This document shows, in pieces, positions 40,588 through 52,056 of a DNA stretch of 64,000 nt. A program made the translations under genes and the position numbers. Every line of letters starts with the position of its first letter. Within the stretch, counting starts at the first letter, position 1. The stretch spans positions 1,067 through 65,066 of the forward strand of contig NZ_JBOITM010000084.1 of assembly GCF_050717535.1 (NCBI RefSeq). Direction: 5' to 3'. A model generated the notes under the pieces. The model searched no databases, was not told the DNA's origin, and saw nothing but the letters and a program-made list of their open reading frames with translations. This stretch comes from Clostridium sp. GTDB lineage: Bacteria > Bacillota > Clostridia > Clostridiales > Clostridiaceae.

Positions 40588-41068
40588 TTATGAGAGCTGA
40601 ATTTTTTATATAAAAAAACTATTCTACTTTTATAAAGTAGGTAATTTCATCTATGGGTATAGGTTCTTTTTTCCAAATTTTATAATAAGCAAAGTGTATT
40701 TTGCATTCACCGCATTTTAAAGGCTTGAACTTCCCAATAATCTGATGATGGCCACCTAGTATATTTATAATTCTTACTATTGTCTCTTTAATATTTTTTT
40801 TATTCATGTAACAATATCATTGTAAATGTTGTTTTAGTATTGATATTTGACGTTATATAATAAAAAAAGATAAAGCATATATTACTTTGGTATAATGATA
40901 GATAAGTACAAATTTTAAAGGCATTATAAAATATTGAAAAAATAGAATATTTTTATTTAAATTTATAATAATATACAAGAAATATGGTTTATTTATATTA
41001 GCTTAGTTTATTAAGTGTATTTTTAGAATTAATGTAAATATTTAATTGATATTGAGGAAGTGATTGAA

Positions 41069-44000
41069 ATGGAGATTATTAATAATAGGTATAGAGTAGT
41101 AAAATGTATAAAACAAAACAGAGTAGTTTCCAGTTATGCAGTTAATGACATAATAAAAAATTATGATACTATACAATTAAATATTCTTAATTCAGAATAT
41201 TTACAAAAGGGATTAATAGAATTCTATACAAAAGAGTTTATGAGTTTAACTAACCTATCCTGTGAAAATATGATATCAGTGTATGATTTTAATTTGGTTA
41301 ATCTTTTAGATAATAAAAAATTAAATGATAAAGTGTATTTTTACACAAATGAATACCTTCAAAATAACACTAGTATTTTAGATATTGTAGGGGACATGCA
41401 AAGTGAAGAATTATTAGATTTATTTATAGAGATTTGCCAAAGTATAAATTATATTCATTTAAAGGGTTTTATTTATGGAAATATAAATTTATCTAATATT
41501 ATAGTTTCAAATACGGTTTTTAATAAAAAAATTTCTATTAAATTTAAAGATTTTGCTACAGTTGAACTTGAAAAGCAGGAGTTTTGGAAGGACGAAAATA
41601 AGGTGGATTATTTTAAGGCACCAGAAATATCAAAAGGGGAAATATGTAGTGTTTTTAGCGATATATATTCTCTAGGAGTATTATTATTTGTTATGTATAT
41701 GAAAAGTAAAGATTATAATATCTCCATTAATGATGAAATTAAATCTTTCGATGATGTAAAACTTGAAGAAATATTCAATAGTAATGAGGATTTCAATGTG
41801 GATTTTAAAAATATTATTGAAAAAATGACCTATAGTGATGCTGATAAAAGATATAGAAGTATTTCAGAATTAGTAATGGATATAAATATGATTTTTAATA
41901 AACAGTATGTACCGCATAGAAAAAAAGAAATAGAAAAATTGAACTTTAATTTGAAAATGATAGGCAGAGATGAAGAAGTTAATAAAATTATGGATATTTA
42001 CGAATCTATTAAAAATAAAAACAATTATAATTCTACTATTTTAATCCATGGAGAATCAGGTATTGGTAAAACTCGTTTTCTTGATTCACTAAAATATCTC
42101 TTTTCTTTAAAAAAAGTAAATGCTTATAGCAGTTTTACTCTAGATGCATCTACTAAAGATAGTAATAAGGCTTTTATAGATATATTAAAGCAATTTATTT
42201 CTGAATGCCAAGGAGAAGTGTTAGAAAGATATGAGTCGGAATTAGTTAAATTCCTACCTGAACTTGGTGGTAAAAAAAACATAATTCCATCTGAATCATT
42301 AAGTGGTGATAAAGAAAAATTTAGACTTATACATTCCGCAATGGGATTTATAGAAGAGTGTATAAACAGTAAACCTATAGTTATAATTATTGATAATTTT
42401 CACCTAGCGGATGATTTTACTATAGAACTAATGGAATATATTATAAGGAAAAAATCACCTAATAAAAATATAATGACCATATTATCCTATTGTGATGGAG
42501 AATGTTTAGTAAATAAGAAATTTATAGAATTTACAAAAAATATATCACACAATAGTGGTGAAACTAATATTTTTTTAAAAGAACTAGGTGAAAAAGAAGT
42601 AGGTGAGATGATTCAAAATATTTTATGTATGCCTGAAATACCCTATAAGTTTACAGATAGTATATATGAAAAGACAAAGGGAAATCCGTTATTTGTGCAA
42701 GAAATTATAAAGAGCTTTTTTAATGAAAAGTATATTTATGTAGATAGTGAAGATGGATGCTGGAGTAGGGATTGTGAATATTCTAAATTTATAGTGCCTA
42801 CAGATATGCATGGAGTATTATTAAATCAAGTTAAAGAAATGGAAGAAACAAATTACAATATTTTAACAGTAATATCTATATTTAATAGCGCTGTTTCTTT
42901 AGAAATAATTAAGAGCTTTATTAAAAATGAGAATAATGATTTAGAGAAAGCTATCGAAGGGCTTATTTCCTCGGGAATATTATGCAAAAAAATTGAGGAC
43001 AGAGGATTTGTATTTGATTTTTACAATAAATTTCTTAAAAGCCTTATGTATGAGAAAATTAGGCTTGAAGATAGAAAAGTTATGCATAGATTAGCCTCAG
43101 TAGCACTTGAAAATCAATATAAAAAGGGTGGAACAGAATATGTTTATGAACTAATTTATCATTTAGAAAAATCTAATCAAGAGGGAAAGATTATTGATTA
43201 TTGCATTGAAAATGCTGAAAAAATGAAACTTCTAAAAAATAGAAGTGATGCAATAAAAAATTTAACTAAAGCTGAATCTATTTTAGACTATTCTTTTGAT
43301 TCGATTAAAAATATAAAGCTCATTATGGATCTTGCTAATTTACACGAACAAGAAGGTCATATTGATTTAGCTATAAAATACTATTTATCAATAGGAAAGT
43401 ATAAGCAGCATGCTGCGCTACATAAGTACATAATAGATAGCTTAATTAAAGTAGCAAAAGTATATCTAAATAAAAATGATATAGAAAGTACTGTATATTA
43501 TATTGAAGAAATTAAGGTTATGCTTTCCAAAGTAGATTATGTTTCAGGGATGCTTAGATGTGAAGGAATCCTAGCTGCTGTATATGACATAAAGCAGGAT
43601 TATAAAAGTGTACAAACTATATGTAACACTTGTTTAGAGCTTTGCACTGGGGAATATGAAGAACTGAAAACTAAATTTTATAACTATAAGGGCTTATATT
43701 ATTTAAGAAGTGGTAGAGCTGACAAAGCATTAGCGATTTTTGAAGAAAATATAGAGGTATGTAGTAAATATAATAATATTAGGGGCATAATAAAATCTTT
43801 AAATAGAATAGGTGTTATTTATGGAGATTACTATCAAGATGATAATAAAGCCATAAAATATTTTATAAAGATGAAGGATATCTGTGAAAAAAATAATATG
43901 AGCTCAGAGGTGGTACTTGCTTTAATAAATATAGGTGCTACATATTTTTCAATGGGAAAGTATGAAATATCCTTACAGTATTTTATAGAGACACTAGAAA

Positions 44001-46519
44001 CATGCAAAAAGTATGATGATGAATTCCATGTGTTTTATTGTTATAGTTCAATTTCTAGTGCAAATTTGAAATTAGGTTATTATGATAATGCATATAAATA
44101 TTATGAACTTTGCCTTAAAGAGTTAGAGAATTATCCTAACCAAGGAAAAGAAATAGGTGAATTTTACTTTGTAGCTTCCCAGATTAATTATAAATTTGGG
44201 GATTTGAACAAGGCCCAATTTTATATAAATAAAACATTAGATATATATGATCATGATGAATGTATTTTTAAATGGAACGCACAGGTTTTAAATGAATATA
44301 TAAAATTTCATTTAGAAAAAAATGATGCAAAATTAATTGAAAGTCTTGAAAACATTATAACTATTGTTGATAAAATAGCCTCATTGACTAGCAAACTTAA
44401 TATTTTCTACGAGGTTGCAATTTATTTATATGAAAATGATAAAAAAGAATATGCATCTGTTTTTCTTAGTGAAATTAAAAATATTGATATTGACTTAAAA
44501 GACAATAGATTGTATGTTAAAAAACTTTATCTTGGTGGTTTAATTGAAAAAAAGAAGAACATTAAAATTTTCAGTGAAGCCTTGAAATATTCGAAAAAAT
44601 ATAAAGAAGTTGATGTATATTGGAGAATATACTCTTCAATGGGTGATTATTATTTTGATAAAAAAGATTATTTATATGCGGTAATTTATTATTTTGAGGC
44701 CTGTGGAATATTAAAGGATATAATTTTTAAATTACCAGCAGAATATAGATTGACTTATGTTAAGTTAAATAATGCCTTGAAGCCTTTCAATAAATTTTTA
44801 ATTATTAATAATCATTATAAGCAAAATAAAGATAGTTCGATGTTAGAATTTGAACCCGTTAATGTAAGTGATGAAGGTGGGTTATTAGATTTATTAGAGA
44901 GAGTAAATCATAAAGACATTTTAAAAAATAAGAATTTTATAAAATCTATAAAAAAGATATATTCATCTTCCCTTCACGAAGATATCCATGACATAAGTGA
45001 TGTGCTAGAAAATTTACAAGGTGATAATTCTAAAAACTTGGAACTTATACTGGATTATTTATGCTATACAACACTAGCAACAAGGGGAACTATTATTATA
45101 AATGGTGATGACAATGATAAAGAATATAAAGTTATTGCATCTAGTGATAGAAGATATGAGCTTCCACAAGACCAAGAAGGATTATCTAAAATTCTAAGTG
45201 TGCAGACACCAGTTCTAGTAACGGACTATTCTCTAGAGAGAAATATAAATGGAGATATAAATAATATTCATAATACTTTAAAAGCTTTTATTTGTATTCC
45301 CATTGTTATGGAAAATGCCAATGAAAAAGGGTTTATTAAAAATGAAAGAAGAAAAAACATTCAGGATAGTAAGCATGTAATTGGATATATATATATAGAA
45401 TCACAAAGGGAATTAAATAATATTAATAAGGATAGCATGAAAAAATGTATGGAGCTTAGCAAAATTATAGGTATAATAATTGAAAAATACAAGTTTAAAT
45501 TAAGTGCGTCTATTGATAAATTGACAGGAACTCTTACTAGAAAATATCTAGAGGAGGCTTTAGGCGAACAAATTGAAGCATCCAGCCAAATAAGTAGTGA
45601 ATTTTCTCTTATTATGTATGATTTAGATCATTTTAAATTAGTAAATGATAAGTTTGGACATCGCACAGGAGATTATGTATTAAAAAGGGTTTGCGATGTT
45701 GTTATGAGTAATTTAAGAGAAACTGATATTGTAGGTAGATATGGTGGGGAAGAGTTTATTGTTATTCTTCCAGGGACAGGTATTTGTGATGCCCAGCTTA
45801 TAGCTGAAAAACTACGATGTAAAATAGAAGAAGAAAAAATACTAGACAATAGACGAGATGTCACTGTAAGTTTGGGGGTTGCTACCTATCCACTTCATGG
45901 TGAGTGGCAAGAGGAATTAGTTGAGCGAGTTGATCAAGCCTTATATGTGGCAAAGGAACAAGGAAGAAATAGGTATGCTATTTGGAATAGTGAATTCTCT
46001 AAAAAAGCTAAAAGAACAGATAAGCTTACTGGAATAATATCTGGCAATGCAATTCAAGATCATAGAAATGTACTTGCCATGATAGAATTAATTGAGCTTA
46101 TAAATATAAAGGGTGAAAGAGAAGATAAAATATATAGTTTACTTGGAAGAATTATTGAAATCACAGAGGCGCAAAAGGGCACTTTGTTCATTATGGACAG
46201 TGAAAAAATCAAAGATAAATATTCAAGAGTGATTTTCAGAAATGAGTGGATGGATGTAGATACCTATAATGAAAAAATAATAAAATCTGTAGTTAATAGT
46301 AAACAGGGAGTATGCAAGATAGATTGGGATACAATAATTGAGTATGATACAGTTACAGGTGTTCCAAATTGGCAGTCGGTTATGGCTATTCCACTAATTC
46401 AAGATGAAGTAGTAAAAGGAGTATTATATTTAACAGAATCTACGGTGACAAAAGAGTTTGGTTTTGAGGACTTTAACTTTGTGAATACTTTGGGAAAGAT
46501 AATAGTTCAAATACTATAG
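41069..46519 (+). CDS. Multidomain diguanylate cyclase: pseudokinase - STAND/AAA NTPase - TPR-like repeats - GAF - GGDEF - GAF
   Basis: Kinase fold with YGNINLSN replacing HRDLKPSN, plus DFA, APE, SDIYSLG; GESGIGKT and IIIDNFH; KGNPLF; long helical repeats; RETD..GRYGGEEF; GVLYL GAF tail. Confidence 0.9.
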   Translation: MEIINNRYRVVKCIKQNRVVSSYAVNDIIKNYDTIQLNILNSEYLQKGLIEFYTKEFMSLTNLSCENMISVYDFNLVNLLDNKKLNDKVYFYTNEYLQNNTSILDIVGDMQSEELLDLFIEICQSINYIHLKGFIYGNINLSNIIVSNTVFNKKISIKFKDFATVELEKQEFWKDENKVDYFKAPEISKGEICSVFSDIYSLGVLLFVMYMKSKDYNISINDEIKSFDDVKLEEIFNSNEDFNVDFKNIIEKMTYSDADKRYRSISELVMDINMIFNKQYVPHRKKEIEKLNFNLKMIGRDEEVNKIMDIYESIKNKNNYNSTILIHGESGIGKTRFLDSLKYLFSLKKVNAYSSFTLDASTKDSNKAFIDILKQFISECQGEVLERYESELVKFLPELGGKKNIIPSESLSGDKEKFRLIHSAMGFIEECINSKPIVIIIDNFHLADDFTIELMEYIIRKKSPNKNIMTILSYCDGECLVNKKFIEFTKNISHNSGETNIFLKELGEKEVGEMIQNILCMPEIPYKFTDSIYEKTKGNPLFVQEIIKSFFNEKYIYVDSEDGCWSRDCEYSKFIVPTDMHGVLLNQVKEMEETNYNILTVISIFNSAVSLEIIKSFIKNENNDLEKAIEGLISSGILCKKIEDRGFVFDFYNKFLKSLMYEKIRLEDRKVMHRLASVALENQYKKGGTEYVYELIYHLEKSNQEGKIIDYCIENAEKMKLLKNRSDAIKNLTKAESILDYSFDSIKNIKLIMDLANLHEQEGHIDLAIKYYLSIGKYKQHAALHKYIIDSLIKVAKVYLNKNDIESTVYYIEEIKVMLSKVDYVSGMLRCEGILAAVYDIKQDYKSVQTICNTCLELCTGEYEELKTKFYNYKGLYYLRSGRADKALAIFEENIEVCSKYNNIRGIIKSLNRIGVIYGDYYQDDNKAIKYFIKMKDICEKNNMSSEVVLALINIGATYFSMGKYEISLQYFIETLETCKKYDDEFHVFYCYSSISSANLKLGYYDNAYKYYELCLKELENYPNQGKEIGEFYFVASQINYKFGDLNKAQFYINKTLDIYDHDECIFKWNAQVLNEYIKFHLEKNDAKLIESLENIITIVDKIASLTSKLNIFYEVAIYLYENDKKEYASVFLSEIKNIDIDLKDNRLYVKKLYLGGLIEKKKNIKIFSEALKYSKKYKEVDVYWRIYSSMGDYYFDKKDYLYAVIYYFEACGILKDIIFKLPAEYRLTYVKLNNALKPFNKFLIINNHYKQNKDSSMLEFEPVNVSDEGGLLDLLERVNHKDILKNKNFIKSIKKIYSSSLHEDIHDISDVLENLQGDNSKNLELILDYLCYTTLATRGTIIINGDDNDKEYKVIASSDRRYELPQDQEGLSKILSVQTPVLVTDYSLERNINGDINNIHNTLKAFICIPIVMENANEKGFIKNERRKNIQDSKHVIGYIYIESQRELNNINKDSMKKCMELSKIIGIIIEKYKFKLSASIDKLTGTLTRKYLEEALGEQIEASSQISSEFSLIMYDLDHFKLVNDKFGHRTGDYVLKRVCDVVMSNLRETDIVGRYGGEEFIVILPGTGICDAQLIAEKLRCKIEEEKILDNRRDVTVSLGVATYPLHGEWQEELVERVDQALYVAKEQGRNRYAIWNSEFSKKAKRTDKLTGIISGNAIQDHRNVLAMIELIELINIKGEREDKIYSLLGRIIEITEAQKGTLFIMDSEKIKDKYSRVIFRNEWMDVDTYNEKIIKSVVNSKQGVCKIDWDTIIEYDTVTGVPNWQSVMAIPLIQDEVVKGVLYLTESTVTKEFGFEDFNFVNTLGKIIVQIL

Positions 46520-46616
46520 TATAGACAGGATAAAAATGAGGAAACATACACATATGAAAGGATTTATGTTGTTAGCAGTATGGAATAAAGTGGTGTATAA
46601 TGAATATTAAATACTA

Positions 46617-46650
46617 GGTGCCACGCACCTTGACGTGGCAAGTGTCAAGT
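46617..46650 (+). repeat. GC-rich REP-like palindromic repeat, copy 1
   Basis: ggtgccacg-caccttga-cgtggcaagtgtcaagt; 7-bp stem tgccacg/cgtggca. Confidence 0.7.
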
Positions 46651-46720
46651 TCAAGTTTTCGGGAGATGGAACATTACATAAGTGTTTCAAATTTTCAAAG
46701 GAAATATAAGGAGGACAAAA

Positions 46721-49651
46721 ATGAAGTTTACAATTGGCAGTATATATCATGGCTTTAAATTAATCCAGGAGAAAAAAATAGAAGAGATTAATTCAGTTAC
46801 AAGAGTATTTGAACATGAAAAAAGTGGAGCTAGACTAATGCATTTAGAAAATGATGATGATAACAAAGTGTTTTCTATTGGATTTAGAACACCACCTAAA
46901 GATAGTAATGGACTTCCACATATTCTTGAGCATTCAGTACTTTGCGGATCAAGAAAATTTCCAACAAAGGAACCCTTTGTTGAACTCATAAAGGGATCGT
47001 TAAATACATTTTTAAATGCTATGACTTTTTCTGATAAAACAATATATCCTCTAGCTAGTAAAAATGAAAAAGATTTTTTCAATCTTATGGATGTATATTT
47101 AGATGCAGTTTTTCATCCTAATATTTATTCTAAACCCGAAATATTAATGCAAGAGGGTTGGCATTATGAATTGGAAAAGAAGGAAGATAAACTAACTTAT
47201 AAAGGTGTAGTTTATAATGAAATGAAGGGTGCTTTTTCTTCTCCGGAAGGATGCCTTATGCGTAAAGTTCAAGAATCTTTATTTCCAGAAACCTCTTATG
47301 GTGTTGAATCTGGTGGAGATCCAGAATTTATACCGGATTTAACTCAGGAGGAGTTTTTAGAGTTTCATAAAAAATACTATCATCCTTCAAATAGTTATAT
47401 ATTCCTATATGGAGATGGAGACATTGATAAAGAGCTACAATTTATTAGTGAAAAATATTTAAATGATTTTGATAGAATTGTTGTAGATTCAGCTATTGCC
47501 CTACAAAAACCTTTTAGCAGTATGAAAGAACTTAAAATAGAGTATCCTATTTCATCAGATGATGATGAGAAAGACAAAAGCTTCTTGAGTATGAACTTTG
47601 TATGTGGGGATAATATTAGTAAGCCAGAACATCATTTAGCCTTTGAAATTTTAGAATATTTATTGCTAGAAAGTGCTGCAGCGCCTTTGAAAAGAGCGCT
47701 TGTAGAAGCAGACCTTGGAAAAGATGTATTTGGAAGCTTTGATAACAGCATCTTGCAACCAGTTTTTAGTATAGTAGTAAAAAACTCTAATGAAAGCCAA
47801 AAGGAAAAATTTAAAGAAGTTGTGTTTACAACTCTAAAGAATTTAGTTAAAGACGGCTTAGATAAAAAGCTAATAGAAGCATGTATAAATATTACGGAAT
47901 TTAAGTTAAGGGAAGCCGATTTAGGAGGTTTTCCAAAAGGATTATTCTATTATATAACTAGTATGGACAGTTGGCTTTATGATAAAGATCCAACTATGCA
48001 TTTAGAATATGAAAGTTATTTAAGTAAAATAAAAGCTGCATTAACTACTAATTATTTTGAAAGCCTTATAGAGGAGTACCTAATAAATAATGCACATAGT
48101 TCATTTGTTATTTTGAATGGTAAAAAGGGCCTAGCAGAGCAAAAGTCAAAGGCAGTAGAAGAAAAGCTAGCTAAGTATAAGGCGAGTCTTTCAGAAAAAC
48201 AAATAGATGAAATAATAGGAGGAACTAAAGCTCTTAAAGAAAGACAAATGACACCAGATACTGTGGAAGTACTAGAAACAATACCACTACTTGAACTTTC
48301 AGATATTGAAGTTCCAGTAGAGCACTTACCTTTAAAGGAAAAGGATGAAAAGGGAGTAAAGGTATTATCTCATAATATATTTACTAATAAAATAGCTTAT
48401 ATAAATGTGTTATTTGACGCTAAAAAAGTAGATATGACGTTATTACCTTATGTAACTTTACTATCAACTCTTTTAGGAAGAGTAAGTACCCAAAATACTA
48501 AATATTCAGATTTATCTAATGAAATTAATATCCATACAGGTGGAATTCATTTTACAACAGAGATATATGGAGATAATAAAAATTTTGAAAAATACAGTCC
48601 AAAGCTTGTAGTAAAAACTAAAGCATTAGTTCCAAAGCTTCCTAAACTATTTGATCTTATGGCAGAGATAATTAATACCACTGTGTTTGATGATAAGAAG
48701 CGTTTGAAGGAACTAATTCAGCAATTGAAATCAAGGCAGGAAATGAAAATCCTTGATAGAGGACATATGGCAGCAGCTGGAAGACTTACTTCTTACTTTT
48801 CACCAGCTTCAGCTTATATAGAAAAAACTACAGGAATAGCTTTTTATGAATTCATAAGTGGAATAGAAAGAGACTTTGATAATAAAGCGCAGGATATTAT
48901 TGAAAACTTAAAAAAGGTATCAAAGCTTATATTCAACAAGAACAATCTTATGATAAGTGTTACAGGAGAAGAGGATGTATATGATGCTTTTGCTGTGGAA
49001 TTACCTAAGATTATAAGTATATTAGGAGAAGAAAAATTACCAGATGCAGAGTATAATTTTGAACTTAATAAAAACAACGAAGGATTATTATCTTCCTCAG
49101 ATGTTCAGTATGTAGCTAAAGGATATAACTTCATTAAGAAGGGCTATTCTTATTCAGGTAAAATGCTAGTACTTAAAACTATAGCAAGTTTAGACTATTT
49201 ATGGAATAGAGTACGTGTGCAAGGTGGAGCCTATGGCGGTTTTGCAAACTTAGCTAGGAGTGGTAACATTGTTTTTGTATCTTATAGAGATCCTAATGTA
49301 AAAGAGACACTAGTGGCTTACGACGGAATATGTGATTATATAGGAAGCTTTGAAGCTTCTGAAAGAGAAATGACCAAATATATAATAGGAACAATAAGTG
49401 AGCTTGATTCACCTTTATCACCTTCTATGAAGGGTGAGAGGGCTACAGCATATTATATAAGAGGTATTTCAGAGGCGCAAAGACAAGTGGAAAGAGACGA
49501 AGTATTAAGCACAAAGTCAGAGGACATTAAGTCTTTTAAATCACTATTAGATGACATTATAAAAGAAAATTGTTTTTGTGTACTGGGAAATGAGACAAAA
49601 CTTAAAGACAACAAAGATATATTCACGAGTTTAGTGAATGTATTTAAATAA
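46721..49651 (+). CDS. M16C family metallopeptidase (insulinase/presequence protease-like)
   Basis: HILEHSVLCGS (HxxEH), LNAMT..DKT.YP, VRVQGGAYG, SYRDPN motifs; aggagg RBS before ATG 46721. Confidence 0.95.
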   Translation: MKFTIGSIYHGFKLIQEKKIEEINSVTRVFEHEKSGARLMHLENDDDNKVFSIGFRTPPKDSNGLPHILEHSVLCGSRKFPTKEPFVELIKGSLNTFLNAMTFSDKTIYPLASKNEKDFFNLMDVYLDAVFHPNIYSKPEILMQEGWHYELEKKEDKLTYKGVVYNEMKGAFSSPEGCLMRKVQESLFPETSYGVESGGDPEFIPDLTQEEFLEFHKKYYHPSNSYIFLYGDGDIDKELQFISEKYLNDFDRIVVDSAIALQKPFSSMKELKIEYPISSDDDEKDKSFLSMNFVCGDNISKPEHHLAFEILEYLLLESAAAPLKRALVEADLGKDVFGSFDNSILQPVFSIVVKNSNESQKEKFKEVVFTTLKNLVKDGLDKKLIEACINITEFKLREADLGGFPKGLFYYITSMDSWLYDKDPTMHLEYESYLSKIKAALTTNYFESLIEEYLINNAHSSFVILNGKKGLAEQKSKAVEEKLAKYKASLSEKQIDEIIGGTKALKERQMTPDTVEVLETIPLLELSDIEVPVEHLPLKEKDEKGVKVLSHNIFTNKIAYINVLFDAKKVDMTLLPYVTLLSTLLGRVSTQNTKYSDLSNEINIHTGGIHFTTEIYGDNKNFEKYSPKLVVKTKALVPKLPKLFDLMAEIINTTVFDDKKRLKELIQQLKSRQEMKILDRGHMAAAGRLTSYFSPASAYIEKTTGIAFYEFISGIERDFDNKAQDIIENLKKVSKLIFNKNNLMISVTGEEDVYDAFAVELPKIISILGEEKLPDAEYNFELNKNNEGLLSSSDVQYVAKGYNFIKKGYSYSGKMLVLKTIASLDYLWNRVRVQGGAYGGFANLARSGNIVFVSYRDPNVKETLVAYDGICDYIGSFEASEREMTKYIIGTISELDSPLSPSMKGERATAYYIRGISEAQRQVERDEVLSTKSEDIKSFKSLLDDIIKENCFCVLGNETKLKDNKDIFTSLVNVFK

Positions 49652-49653
49652 TG

Positions 49654-49699
49654 AAAAGATGCCTGGTGCCACCCACGTGGCAAGTGGCATCTTTTTTTT
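49654..49699 (+). terminator. Terminator whose loop and right arm are formed by the REP-like repeat
   Basis: aaaagatgcc/ggcatctttt arms enclosing tggtgccacccacgtggcaagt, followed by a T run. Confidence 0.75.
49664..49689 (+). repeat. GC-rich REP-like palindromic repeat, copy 2
   Basis: tggtgccacccacgtggcaagtggca, the exact reverse complement of 50788-50813. Confidence 0.85.
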
Positions 49700-49803
49700 A
49701 AAAACCAGAAAAGTTTTTATGAATTTTCATAAAATATAGGAGGTAACCGGTTCTATGTGTAGTATATTATAAAGTAATAGTTTAATATAAGGGGGCAATT
49801 TCC

Positions 49804-50751
49804 ATGGCAATTAAGGCACTTTTTACATATAACTACGGCGGAGAGAAAATGAAAGATATAGAAACTTTTGGATATGATATAAAAGTAGTTAAAGAGCAAG
49901 ATTTAATTTATAGTGATGATTTAGATGATGTAGAGGTTTTAATTTGTTATGACCCCTTTAAAACCCTAGAAATAGAGAAAATGAAAAAGCTAAAATGGAT
50001 TCAATTATCTAGCATAGGAATTGATCAGCTACCTATTGATTATGTTAAAAACACTTCTATTATGATTACTAATAATAAAGGTGGTTATAGCATACCTATG
50101 GGCGAATGGATTGTATTAAAAGCACTAGAGTTATTTAAGAATAGTATGGGGCTATATGAAAATCAAACCAATAGGAAATGGAAAATAGATACAAGCATTA
50201 TGGAGTTATATGGAAAGACTATTGGTTTTGTTGGAACAGGTACTATAGCGGTGGAAGCAGCTAAAAGATTTCAGGGCTTTGGGGTAAACATTGTAGGGGT
50301 GAATACAGATGGTAGAGATATTAAACATTTTAATAGATGTTATGCAATGTCAGATCTAAATGAAATGCTTAAATTATGCGATGTCGTTGTAGGTACGATA
50401 CCATATACAAAAGCAACCCATCATTTAATTAATGAAGAGAGATTTGTGGCAATGAAAAAAGGAGCTTATTTCATAAATGTTTCTCGGGGAAATATTGTAG
50501 ATGAAGTATGTCTAATAGAAAATTTGAAAAATGGGAAATTAGCAGGAGCGGCTTTAGACGTGTATGAAGAAGAACCTTTAAAAGAAAATAATGCACTATG
50601 GGATTTAAATAATGTTATATTAACCTCCCATAATTCCTGGATTTCAGAGATGAGAAATGAGAGAAGGTTTGACCTTATCTATAGGAATATGAAAAAATAT
50701 GCACAAAGTGAAGAGTTAATAAATGTAGTAAATCTAAAAAAAGGGTACTAA
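49804..50751 (+). CDS. D-2-hydroxyacid dehydrogenase family protein
   Basis: GFVGTGTIA Rossmann motif, NVSRG, ALDVYEEEP, TSHNS. Confidence 0.93.
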   Translation: MAIKALFTYNYGGEKMKDIETFGYDIKVVKEQDLIYSDDLDDVEVLICYDPFKTLEIEKMKKLKWIQLSSIGIDQLPIDYVKNTSIMITNNKGGYSIPMGEWIVLKALELFKNSMGLYENQTNRKWKIDTSIMELYGKTIGFVGTGTIAVEAAKRFQGFGVNIVGVNTDGRDIKHFNRCYAMSDLNEMLKLCDVVVGTIPYTKATHHLINEERFVAMKKGAYFINVSRGNIVDEVCLIENLKNGKLAGAALDVYEEEPLKENNALWDLNNVILTSHNSWISEMRNERRFDLIYRNMKKYAQSEELINVVNLKKGY

Positions 50752-50756
50752 AATAC

Positions 50757-50813
50757 TACGTGGTAGCAGTGGCATTTATTTGAAACTTGCCACTTGCCAC
50801 GTGGGTGGCACCA
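50757..50813 (-). repeat. GC-rich REP-like repeat, copy 3 (inverted) plus facing partial copy
   Basis: tgccacttgccacgtgggtggcacca at 50788-50813; partial tacgtggtagcagtggca at 50757-50774 can pair with it. Confidence 0.8.
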
Positions 50814-50826
50814 GAAGGAGAAAGTT

Positions 50827-52056
50827 ATGAAAGCAGAAATATTGGCAGTAGGAACGGAAATATTATTAGGGGATATAGTAAATACAAATGCACAATACAT
50901 TGCTAAGAGACTTGCAGACTTAGGAATATCAGTTTACCATCAGTCAGTAGTTGGAGACAATCCACAAAGACTATTTGAGGCATATAGACTAGCATTTAGT
51001 AGAGCTGACTTAGTTATAGCTACTGGGGGACTTGGACCTACAAAGGATGATTTAACAAAGGAAGTAGCCTTTGAATATTTTGGAAAACAAAGTGTAGTTC
51101 ATAAACCTTCTCTAGAAATTATTGAAAATTATTTTAAATTTATGGATAGACCAATGGTTAAAAGTAATATTAAACAGGCATATTTCCCAGTAGATGCAGT
51201 TATTCTTCCTAATAATAATGGCACAGCGCCAGGATGCATAATTGATGAAAATGGGAAGATGGTTGTACTTTTACCTGGACCACCTAGAGAAATGAAGCCT
51301 ATGTTTGAGGAGGCTGTAGTTCCTTATCTTCAAGAGTATCAGCAGGGGGTACTAGTTTCAAAGGTACTTAGGGTTATTGGAGTAGGAGAGAGCAGCGCCG
51401 AAGAAATGATTAAAGATATATTAGATAATCAAAGCAATCCTACTGTGGCACCTTATGCTAAAGATGGAGAAATGATTTTTAGAATGACAGCAAAGGCAAA
51501 TTCGCAGCAGCAAGGTATAAAGCTCTTGGAGCCTATGGAAGCACAAATACGTAGCAAGTTAGGCACAAACATTTATGGGGAAGGTGATACAACCTTAGAG
51601 AATGTACTTGGAGGGATGCTCATAGATAAAAAGCTAACCATAGCCACTGCTGAATCCTGTACAGGAGGTATGGTAGCAGCAAAACTTATAAATTACCCAG
51701 GTATATCTTCTGTGTTTATGGATGGTGCCGTGACTTATAGCAATGAAGCTAAAATCAATAGATTAGGAGTTTCCAAAGAAACCTTAGATAAGTATGGTGC
51801 AGTAAGTAGTGAAGTAGCAGCAGAGATGGCACAAGGCATAGCAAAAACTGCAGGCACTGATATTGGAATTTCTACCACGGGAATTGCAGGCCCAGATGGT
51901 GGAAGCGATGAAAAACCAGTGGGACTTGTATATGTAGGTCTATATATGAAGGGTGAAGTTAAAACAAAAATGTTCAAATTATCTGGAGATAGACAGAGAA
52001 TAAGAGAAAGAGCGACTATGCAACTTTTAGATTGGGTTAGACGAGAACTATTATAA
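50827..52056 (+). CDS. cinA: Competence/damage-inducible protein CinA (MoCF-like domain + NMN deamidase)
   Basis: AVGTEILLG.IVNTNA, GGLGPT.DD.T, AESCTGG, STTGIAGP.GG motifs; aggag RBS before ATG 50827. Confidence 0.96.
   Translation: MKAEILAVGTEILLGDIVNTNAQYIAKRLADLGISVYHQSVVGDNPQRLFEAYRLAFSRADLVIATGGLGPTKDDLTKEVAFEYFGKQSVVHKPSLEIIENYFKFMDRPMVKSNIKQAYFPVDAVILPNNNGTAPGCIIDENGKMVVLLPGPPREMKPMFEEAVVPYLQEYQQGVLVSKVLRVIGVGESSAEEMIKDILDNQSNPTVAPYAKDGEMIFRMTAKANSQQQGIKLLEPMEAQIRSKLGTNIYGEGDTTLENVLGGMLIDKKLTIATAESCTGGMVAAKLINYPGISSVFMDGAVTYSNEAKINRLGVSKETLDKYGAVSSEVAAEMAQGIAKTAGTDIGISTTGIAGPDGGSDEKPVGLVYVGLYMKGEVKTKMFKLSGDRQRIRERATMQLLDWVRRELL

Follow-up and report, generated by a model that had tools for sequence, protein, structure and literature searches.

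Probable orphans of a transposase-linked REP family between the peptidase, dehydrogenase and cinA genes of a Clostridium

In a window of 64,000 nucleotides (the whole stretch of DNA that was analysed), which is part of a 4.45-Mb, 31% GC Clostridium assembly (the window genome, G000), three consecutive intergenic gaps around the genes of an M16C/PreP-type peptidase, a D-isomer-specific 2-hydroxyacid dehydrogenase and CinA contain copies of a short GC-rich palindrome. These copies are in all likelihood orphaned members of a Clostridium family of repetitive extragenic palindromic (REP) elements whose Y1 transposase survives in four relatives, and one of them seems to have been exapted as the terminator of the peptidase gene. 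In an earlier sequence-only reading of the window, the repeats had been described as a local family of elements resembling REPs or miniature inverted-repeat transposable elements (MITEs). The REP-like character is supported by a genus-wide family and by a cognate Y1 gene of the RAYT (REP-associated tyrosine transposase) or TIRYT (tyrosine transposase associated with terminal inverted repeats) type, which is flanked by the repeats in the four relatives, whereas the attribute "local" turned out to be wrong, and the three copies of the window are a chance-sized cluster of a dispersed family.

Within the window, exact matches to the 25-mer GGTGCCACCCACGTGGCAAGTGGCA are located at 49665-49689 (+) and 50788-50812 (-), whereas 100 shuffled sequences gave none, and if the flanks are included, the identity between the two copies extends over 27 bp (CTGGTGCCACCCACGTGGCAAGTGGCA; 49663-49689 on the plus strand and 50788-50814 on the minus strand). 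A search with the core GTGGCAAGTGKCA gave four matches in the 64 kb versus 0.07 expected, including one at 46635-46647, and neither this search nor that with the 25-mer detected any further copy in the window, just as had been stated before. A profile was built from the exact cores and run as nhmmer over the contigs of the window genome, which resulted in about 59 copies; 16 copies in this genome are exact, and 37 differ from the 24-mer GTGCCACCCACGTGGCAAGTGGCA at 2 positions at most, with the reversed pattern as a control giving none. The same mismatch limit and control were used to count copies in 24 congeneric genomes and in 16 genomes from other genera of the same order. The congeners have 0-105 copies, the reversed control being 0 in every genome, and the other genera have none except for a single match in G039, which has 2 mismatches. 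In the species genomes of GTDB, exact 24-mers are almost confined to Clostridium, where they occur in C. pascui, C. peptidivorans, C. frigoriphilum, C. bowmanii, C. tagluense and unnamed species. Exact 24-mers were also seen on two contigs of metagenome-assembled genomes that carry no Clostridium label, L061 (JACMIX010000096.1, Gloeobacterales cyanobacterium) and L060 (Bacillota bacterium), of which the cyanobacterial-labelled one is probably a mis-binned Clostridium contig.

The consensus logo, made from 143 exact copies, reads (T/A)(A/G)-GTGCCACCCACGTGGCAAGTGGCA-AGTT(T/G) and corresponds to a unit of about 31 nt with random flanks beyond. This unit folds into a 6-bp GC-rich hairpin (TGCCAC/GTGGCA, loop CCAC) that is followed by a second GTGGCA, and it is thus a short (20-40 bp) imperfect palindrome that forms a stem-loop, as is typical of REPs. 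It is also extragenic, with 51 of the 59 copies being intergenic according to our own calls of open reading frames (ORFs) in a genome that is 84% coding. Inverted doublets are present with a fixed geometry (14 tail-to-tail, 0 head-to-head), yet singlets outnumber them; in REPINs, the inverted doublet is the predominant, replicating unit. The idea that GC-rich terminator hairpins have merely converged by chance is refuted by the copy counts, and its probability is negligible: the ancestral terminator between the peptidase and dehydrogenase genes, GGTGCC-TTAT-GGCACC, does start like the repeat, but 27 bp of exact identity without any match in shuffled sequences, 37 genomic copies versus none of the reversed control, and a consensus that is conserved across species speak against convergence.

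A genus-wide scan for PF01797 uncovered a Y1 ORF of 288 aa in G009 that is positioned between two copies of the repeat, and the same arrangement is found in G004, G043 and G019. In all four genomes, the Y1 gene of 286-290 aa has a REP(+) 80-115 bp upstream and a REP(-) 10-80 bp downstream, both of which are exact copies in inverted orientation, and this is the arrangement that characterizes a REPtron. The repeat-bracketed unit always lies between an SNF2 helicase gene and an ORF of 137-151 aa. The encoded protein matches PF01797 (Y1_Tnp) with 49 bits (cut-off 23) and HTH_38 at its C-terminus (residues 251-283) with 31.9 bits (cut-off 27), and it contains the HUH motif as NHYHLL and the tyrosine motif as RYIHRNP. 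Its best NCBIfam match is REP_Tyr_transpos (NF047646) with 68.2 bits, versus 17 bits for the IS200 model. There is one gene copy per genome, with 79-80% identity among the four genomes, and the gene is absent from the other 26. As it has the same neighbours everywhere and remnants at the same site in other genomes, it is a single-copy gene that is vertically inherited at a fixed locus. Of 401 genomes from the class Clostridia, 10 encode homologues with 33-40% identity. At the transposase locus of G009 (L155:4655-4700), the 3' REP directly adjoins the ribosome-binding site (RBS) of the downstream 137-aa ORF, which resembles the position of the minus-strand window copy at cinA (50788-50830).

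The transposase also bears on a very unlikely alternative, in which the repeats would derive, as MITE-like remnants, from a DDE insertion sequence or a TnpB-carrying IS200/IS605 element. The family indeed behaves like terminal inverted repeats around a gene, and in about 12 copies the conservation continues over a unit of ~100 bp, but the sole gene that is repeatedly bracketed by the repeat is the Y1 gene with the HTH domain. When ORFs of at least 100 aa were clustered from 115 loci of 8 kb round the copies of other species, only large paralogous families were obtained (ABC transporters, sensor proteins) and no recurring transposase; a tblastn search with the Y1 proteins of the window genome against the same 115 loci gave no match, and there is no Rfam match in the region, omega-RNA included.

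In the window genome, the transposase gene is almost gone. Its site on contig C88 (2187-2284) has only 93 bp between the helicase gene and the small ORF, consisting of a still recognisable remnant of the final ~45 nt of this gene and then a decayed repeat, 'aggccaattggcagcaag'. Across the genus, the gene is intact at this site in 4 genomes; 12 further genomes contain 3' remnants with varied deletion end-points, most of them still followed by the 3' repeat, and in 7 genomes the site is reduced to 43-54 bp, which are unrelated or have decayed completely. All but one of these 7 genomes have zero exact copies of the repeat, and the five that were counted at up to 2 mismatches have 0, 0, 1, 1 and 15 copies. 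The four gene-bearing genomes have 42, 61, 53 and 27 exact copies, as compared to 0-38 in the 26 others (Mann-Whitney p=0.0013, without correction for phylogeny). Copies are further clustered near the gene or its relic: 11 of 39 exact copies of G009 lie within +-100 kb of the gene (p=1e-7), and 9 of the 59 copies of the window genome are on the 66-kb contig that carries the gene remnant (p=2e-7). In a local comparison, most G009 copies are common to the window genome and are therefore old.

In the explanation that we prefer, the repeats are those of a Y1 (HUH) tyrosine transposase that is of the RAYT/TIRYT type and is encoded by a single-copy gene. For TnpA-REP of E. coli, binding and cleavage of REP single-stranded DNA have been established biochemically (PMC3333891), and by analogy with this enzyme and with TnpA of IS200/IS605, the Clostridium transposase would recognise the hairpin on single-stranded DNA, cut and rejoin beside it, and in this way spread copies into intergenic DNA. 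A preference for insertion beside purine-rich RBS sequence could exist. In the window genome, most of the transposase gene has been deleted, and the ~59 copies of the repeat that this genome retains would therefore be immobile and slowly decaying relics. The copy at 49663-49689, which lies in an outer stem with a run of eight T after it, would have been recruited as the terminator of the M16C peptidase gene.

Several points weigh against this explanation. The link of repeat and transposase is drawn from arrangement, correlation and analogy, and the correlation is loose, as there are many exact copies in genomes without the gene (38 in G002, 37 in G008, 31 in G017), and it is also confounded by phylogeny. 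The transposase stays below the equivalog cut-off of NF047646 (68.2 versus 80 bits), and a phmmer search with it against PDB sequences gave no match. Its 33-40% identical homologues are flanked by plain terminal inverted repeats (GGGGTCAGGC..., GTGCCAGGCAC...) and not by hairpin REPs. Unlike in the REP superfamilies, the Clostridium repeat has no canonical GTAG/CGTC tag: in the logo, position -2 is T or A, position -1 is A or G, and G is found at -3 in only 11%, GTAG being confined to the ~100-bp subfamily. Compensatory variation among the copies of the window genome is not significant for either of two candidate helices. The copies lean to one replication strand with 21:36 in the window genome and 12:26 in G009, which is the same direction and only suggestive. 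Finally, the insertion boundaries and the target site of the repeats could not be defined exactly; an empty-site comparison of the copies of other species with the window genome mostly met unalignable intergenic DNA, and it gave no target-site duplication.

Nine Y1_Tnp genes are present in the window genome itself, and none of them is near a copy of the REP family. Four of these, with 303-325 aa (about 305), are found at C13:15231-16148, C4:42556-43497, C66:64450-64779(-) and C86:37793-38776; they have a weak Bac_DnaA_C-like C-terminus and are flanked by inverted repeats of the 14-mer GGGGACGGTTAACA, of which the genome has 17 occurrences, some of them arranged in hairpin pairs. They match TIRYT or "TIRtron" elements and represent a family that is separate from the REP under study. 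The 10-mer TTGGACAAGC downstream of the TIRYT genes was considered as a link to the REP family and rejected, having only 16 occurrences that are mostly genic. Four short RAYT-like Y1 genes (143-212 aa) are at C45:1561-1887(-), C17:4425-4970, C72:101551-101886(-) and C91:623-1051, three of which adjoin the repeat GGTGACAGGCACTTGT, and those on C17 and C91 adjoin a conserved repeat, ...CAAGTTCGTCGGCAAACCTCCTCACTAGGGTGACAGGCACTTGTAAAA, that has six copies in the genome. As to the extended copies of the REP family, about 12 copies head a conserved composite of ~100 bp, ...GGCAAAATTGACAAGCTCTAGCGTATAAATATTATCCACAGCCACTTCCGCAAGCTGTTTCCTATACAATAAAAAAA, which is found in other species too; examples are C75:59018-59118, C75:55755, C79:43961, C91:38402(-), C73:94605, C66:88293(-), C68:145579(-) and C31:18813(-). 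On the opposite strand, this composite has an RBS-like AGGAAACAGC and then a TTG-initiated frame of 10-11 codons, and the indels in a few copies preserve the frame.

The features of the three gaps are listed in Table 1. The gene names given in the sequence-only reading are correct according to Pfam, the palindromes have the sequences and positions that it described, namely in the M16C leader, in the M16C terminator and abutting the cinA RBS, and its partial copy at 50757 is a real, degenerate fragment.

Table 1. Genes, repeat copies and predicted signals in and around the three gaps (window coordinates)
Feature	Position	Strand	Basis and remarks
Promoter-like site TTAGCA-18-TATAAT	46572-46601	+	Consensus scan; predicted, 5' of the M16C peptidase gene
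Diverged REP with enlarged loop, GGTGCCAC-gcaccttgac-GTGGCAAGTGTCAAGTT	46617-46651	+	nhmmer score 16.4; M16C leader
M16C/PreP-type peptidase gene	46721-49651	+	Pfam M16C_assoc, PreP_C, Peptidase_M16
Intrinsic-terminator-like hairpin with REP 49663-49689 inside	49654-49699	+	RNA fold and T8 run at 49692-49699
D-isomer-specific 2-hydroxyacid dehydrogenase gene	49804-50751	+	Pfam 2-Hacid_dh_C, 2-Hacid_dh
Degenerate partial REP CTACGTGGTAGCAGTGGCA, left half of a tail-to-tail doublet	50756-50775	+	Pairs with the minus-strand copy in the fold
Full REP (reverse complement CTGGTGCCACCCACGTGGCAAGTGGCAAGTTTC)	50782-50814	-	Exact match and nhmmer
cinA gene	50827-52056	+	Pfam CinA, MoCF_biosynth, CinA_KH

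The history of the three copies was followed in those congeners whose two flanks could both be anchored. In the first gap, 5' of the peptidase gene, a -35/-10 block ('ttgttagca...ggtgtataat') is kept at nearly all congeneric M16C loci and presumably functions as the promoter, so that the first REP copy would be positioned at about +9 to +45 of the M16C leader. Orthologous copies, some of them exact, occur just downstream of this block in about 12 congeners, while the copy is decaying in the window genome and in G006, and its RNA fold in the window is no better than that of shuffled sequences (z -0.7). Directly 5' of this first repeat, at 41060-46519, there is an ORF of 1819 aa that combines a protein kinase with an AAA_16 ATPase, TPR repeats and GGDEF.

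The second gap, between peptidase and dehydrogenase, lacks the repeat in at least 8 congeners, which have a simple terminator, GGTGCCTTATGGCACC-T7, and then the RBS. An insert of about 40 nt with the repeat is present in G001, G005, G007 and G014, and G018 has a degraded form. In the window genome, G017 and G004, the repeat lies within an outer stem, GATGCC...GGCATC, that is followed by T8, and G008 resembles them but has a further copy in tandem; G006, which is the nearest relative, is without the repeat in this gap. In the third gap, between dehydrogenase and cinA, about 13 congeners have a minus-strand copy a few bases 5' of the cinA RBS, even in cases of differing upstream DNA; in the window, its 5' end is 3 nt upstream of that RBS. 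The stretch from the dehydrogenase gene to cinA contains additional DNA, of about 1.8 kb or 200-535 bp, in G008, G041, G013 and G019, and in the two enlarged gaps that were extracted, those of G009 and G004 (L130, L131), the REP(-) is still directly 5' of the cinA RBS. The plus-strand fragment at 50756-50775 pairs with 50787-50804 (RNA fold -26.7 kcal/mol, z -2.9), and the element in the third gap is thus a decayed doublet; a similar fragment is found in G006 (L129). Downstream of cinA, a homoserine dehydrogenase gene follows. As copies are shared at orthologous sites, all three window copies are old insertions.

The hairpin in the second gap begins 3 nt past the stop codon of the peptidase gene. 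It has an outer stem, AAAAGATGCC/GGCATCTTTT, an inner stem, TGCCAC/GTGGCA, that comes from the REP, and then the T8 run; its predicted fold has -26.6 kcal/mol (z -6.5), and none of 200 shuffled sequences folds as well. A GC-rich hairpin with a T run at the 3' end of a gene is what defines an intrinsic terminator in such predictions, and the copy at 49663-49689 now probably supplies the terminator of the M16C peptidase gene. The depth on a metatranscriptome contig falls from 38 to 0.35 across the terminator, which is weak evidence, the public sequencing runs being from relatives of the window organism only. In the outer stem (49658-49663/49686-49691), GATGCC/GGCATC replaces the GGTGCC/GGCACC of the genomes without the repeat (L138-L148), so that the two arms differ in a compensatory manner. 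It may be that the ancestral terminator received the repeat in its loop, or that the repeat took the place of that loop. The earlier suggestion that the element was co-opted for RNA processing is plausible only for individual copies such as this predicted terminator.

This has to be considered also with respect to the view that the whole family consists of regulatory hairpins, such as terminators, stabilisers of mRNA ends or sites for host proteins, which are selected by the host and kept for their function, with the Y1 neighbourhood being incidental. Besides the strong terminator-like hairpin of the second gap, this view is favoured by the retention of the copies of all three gaps at orthologous sites in genomes whose coding DNA is only 80-86% identical, with the second-gap copy being letter-perfect in three species, by an enrichment at the 3' ends of genes (17 copies in convergent versus 6 in divergent gaps), and by the persistence of many copies in genomes without the transposase. 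The consensus, however, has no T run, its 3' flank being AGTT(T/G), the copies point both with and against transcription (10 and 16, respectively, in tandem gaps), and no covariation is found. Furthermore, the first-gap copy decays in two genomes, congeners of the same gene content differ from 0 to 105 in copy number, and in each of the four genomes with the Y1 gene, this gene stands between exact copies in inverted orientation. Selection for host functions is thus an unlikely origin of the family as a whole.

Yet another idea was raised in the sequence-only reading, which saw a direct pair of repeats around the peptidase gene and an inverted pair around the dehydrogenase gene and suggested that they serve site-specific recombination, by which the bracketed single genes would be excised or inverted. 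Metagenomic joints from 49690 to 50783 could also be taken in this sense, but they have sides of only 27 nt, fit REP doublets that are located elsewhere, and amount to weak evidence or to artefacts of the repeats. In 29 of 29 congeners, with or without repeats, the genes for the peptidase, the dehydrogenase and CinA follow each other in the same order and on the same strand, and an excision or inversion of cassettes is therefore not supported. There is no recombinase gene adjacent, and genome-wide the repeats sit singly in unrelated intergenic gaps. Recombination sites are thus extremely improbable, and an REP family with a lost transposase remains the best explanation for the arrangement in the window.

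The arrangement matches that of the proteobacterial REP/RAYT "REPtrons", such as REP/BIME with TnpA-REP in E. coli and REPIN-RAYT in Pseudomonas (Nunvar 2010; Bertels & Rainey 2011, PMC3116915; Ton-Hoang 2012, PMC3333891; also PMC3733652). Shared are a short GC-rich imperfect palindrome that is extragenic, lineage-specific and dispersed in tens to about 100 copies, a single-copy, vertically inherited Y1/HUH gene between inverted copies, some inverted doublets, and individual copies that form terminator-like hairpins. Unlike those systems, the one described here is found in a Gram-positive host, its singlets outnumber the doublets, its transposase has a C-terminal HTH_38 and scores below the RAYT equivalog cut-off, and most species of the genus, that of the window genome among them, no longer have the gene.

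With TIRYT or "TIRtron" elements (PMC3733652), which correspond to TnpA-REP subclass 2.1 (PMC6006769), the system shares a long (~290-aa) Y1 protein with a C-terminal helix-turn-helix and the position of the gene between inverted repeats at similar distances. In contrast to TIRYT repeats, the flanking repeat of the Clostridium gene (GTGCCACCCACGTGGCA...) lacks GGGGWSAS, is itself a hairpin, and is dispersed in up to about 100 copies; GGGGWSAS is present beside some of the transposase homologues and beside the four ~305-aa Y1 genes of the window genome. Beside TIRYT genes, some families of terminal inverted repeats have been described that are self-complementary and occur in moderate numbers, as single units, dimers or groups (Di Nocera 2013, PMC3733652), and the kind is therefore already known, whereas no REP-like sequences were reported beside subclass 2.1 genes (Quentin 2018, PMC6006769). 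IS200/IS605 and their miniature derivatives have the Y1/HUH chemistry in common with the Clostridium system, as well as, by analogy, hairpin recognition on single-stranded DNA and a possible replication-strand bias. Their ends, however, are two different subterminal hairpins, they are multi-copy together with their gene, and their TnpA has about 150 aa and no HTH; also the scores of the Clostridium transposase, 17 bits on the IS200 model and 68 on the RAYT model, distinguish it from that group.

In the literature that was searched, no account of such an REP-transposase system in Clostridium was found, which is not a proof of absence. It may tentatively be proposed, with some more doubt than confidence, that this is the first REPtron recognised in Clostridium or in Bacillota, and the first hairpin REP family of an HTH-bearing, TIRYT-clade (subclass 2.1-like) Y1 enzyme. 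To our knowledge, REP/RAYT biology has been established almost wholly in Proteobacteria. For itself, the finding is a real but ordinary small relic of mobile DNA. For annotation, it means that the appropriate label for the repeats is REP elements, in place of recombination sites or regulatory RNAs, and that one copy would explain the M16C terminator. The system links the hairpin-REP branch and the TIR-flanked (TIRYT) branch of Y1 transposases. If the explanation is correct, the genus would provide a natural series for the fate of an REP population after the death of its transposase, from the intact gene over at least 12 independent-looking deletions with 3' remnants to complete loss, with the repeats decreasing from about 100 to 0 and some orphan copies apparently fixed as terminators or leader hairpins. 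Such a genus, with intact, degraded and absent transposase genes, would make it possible to test whether REPs need a RAYT to persist, and how fast orphan copies decay or become exapted.

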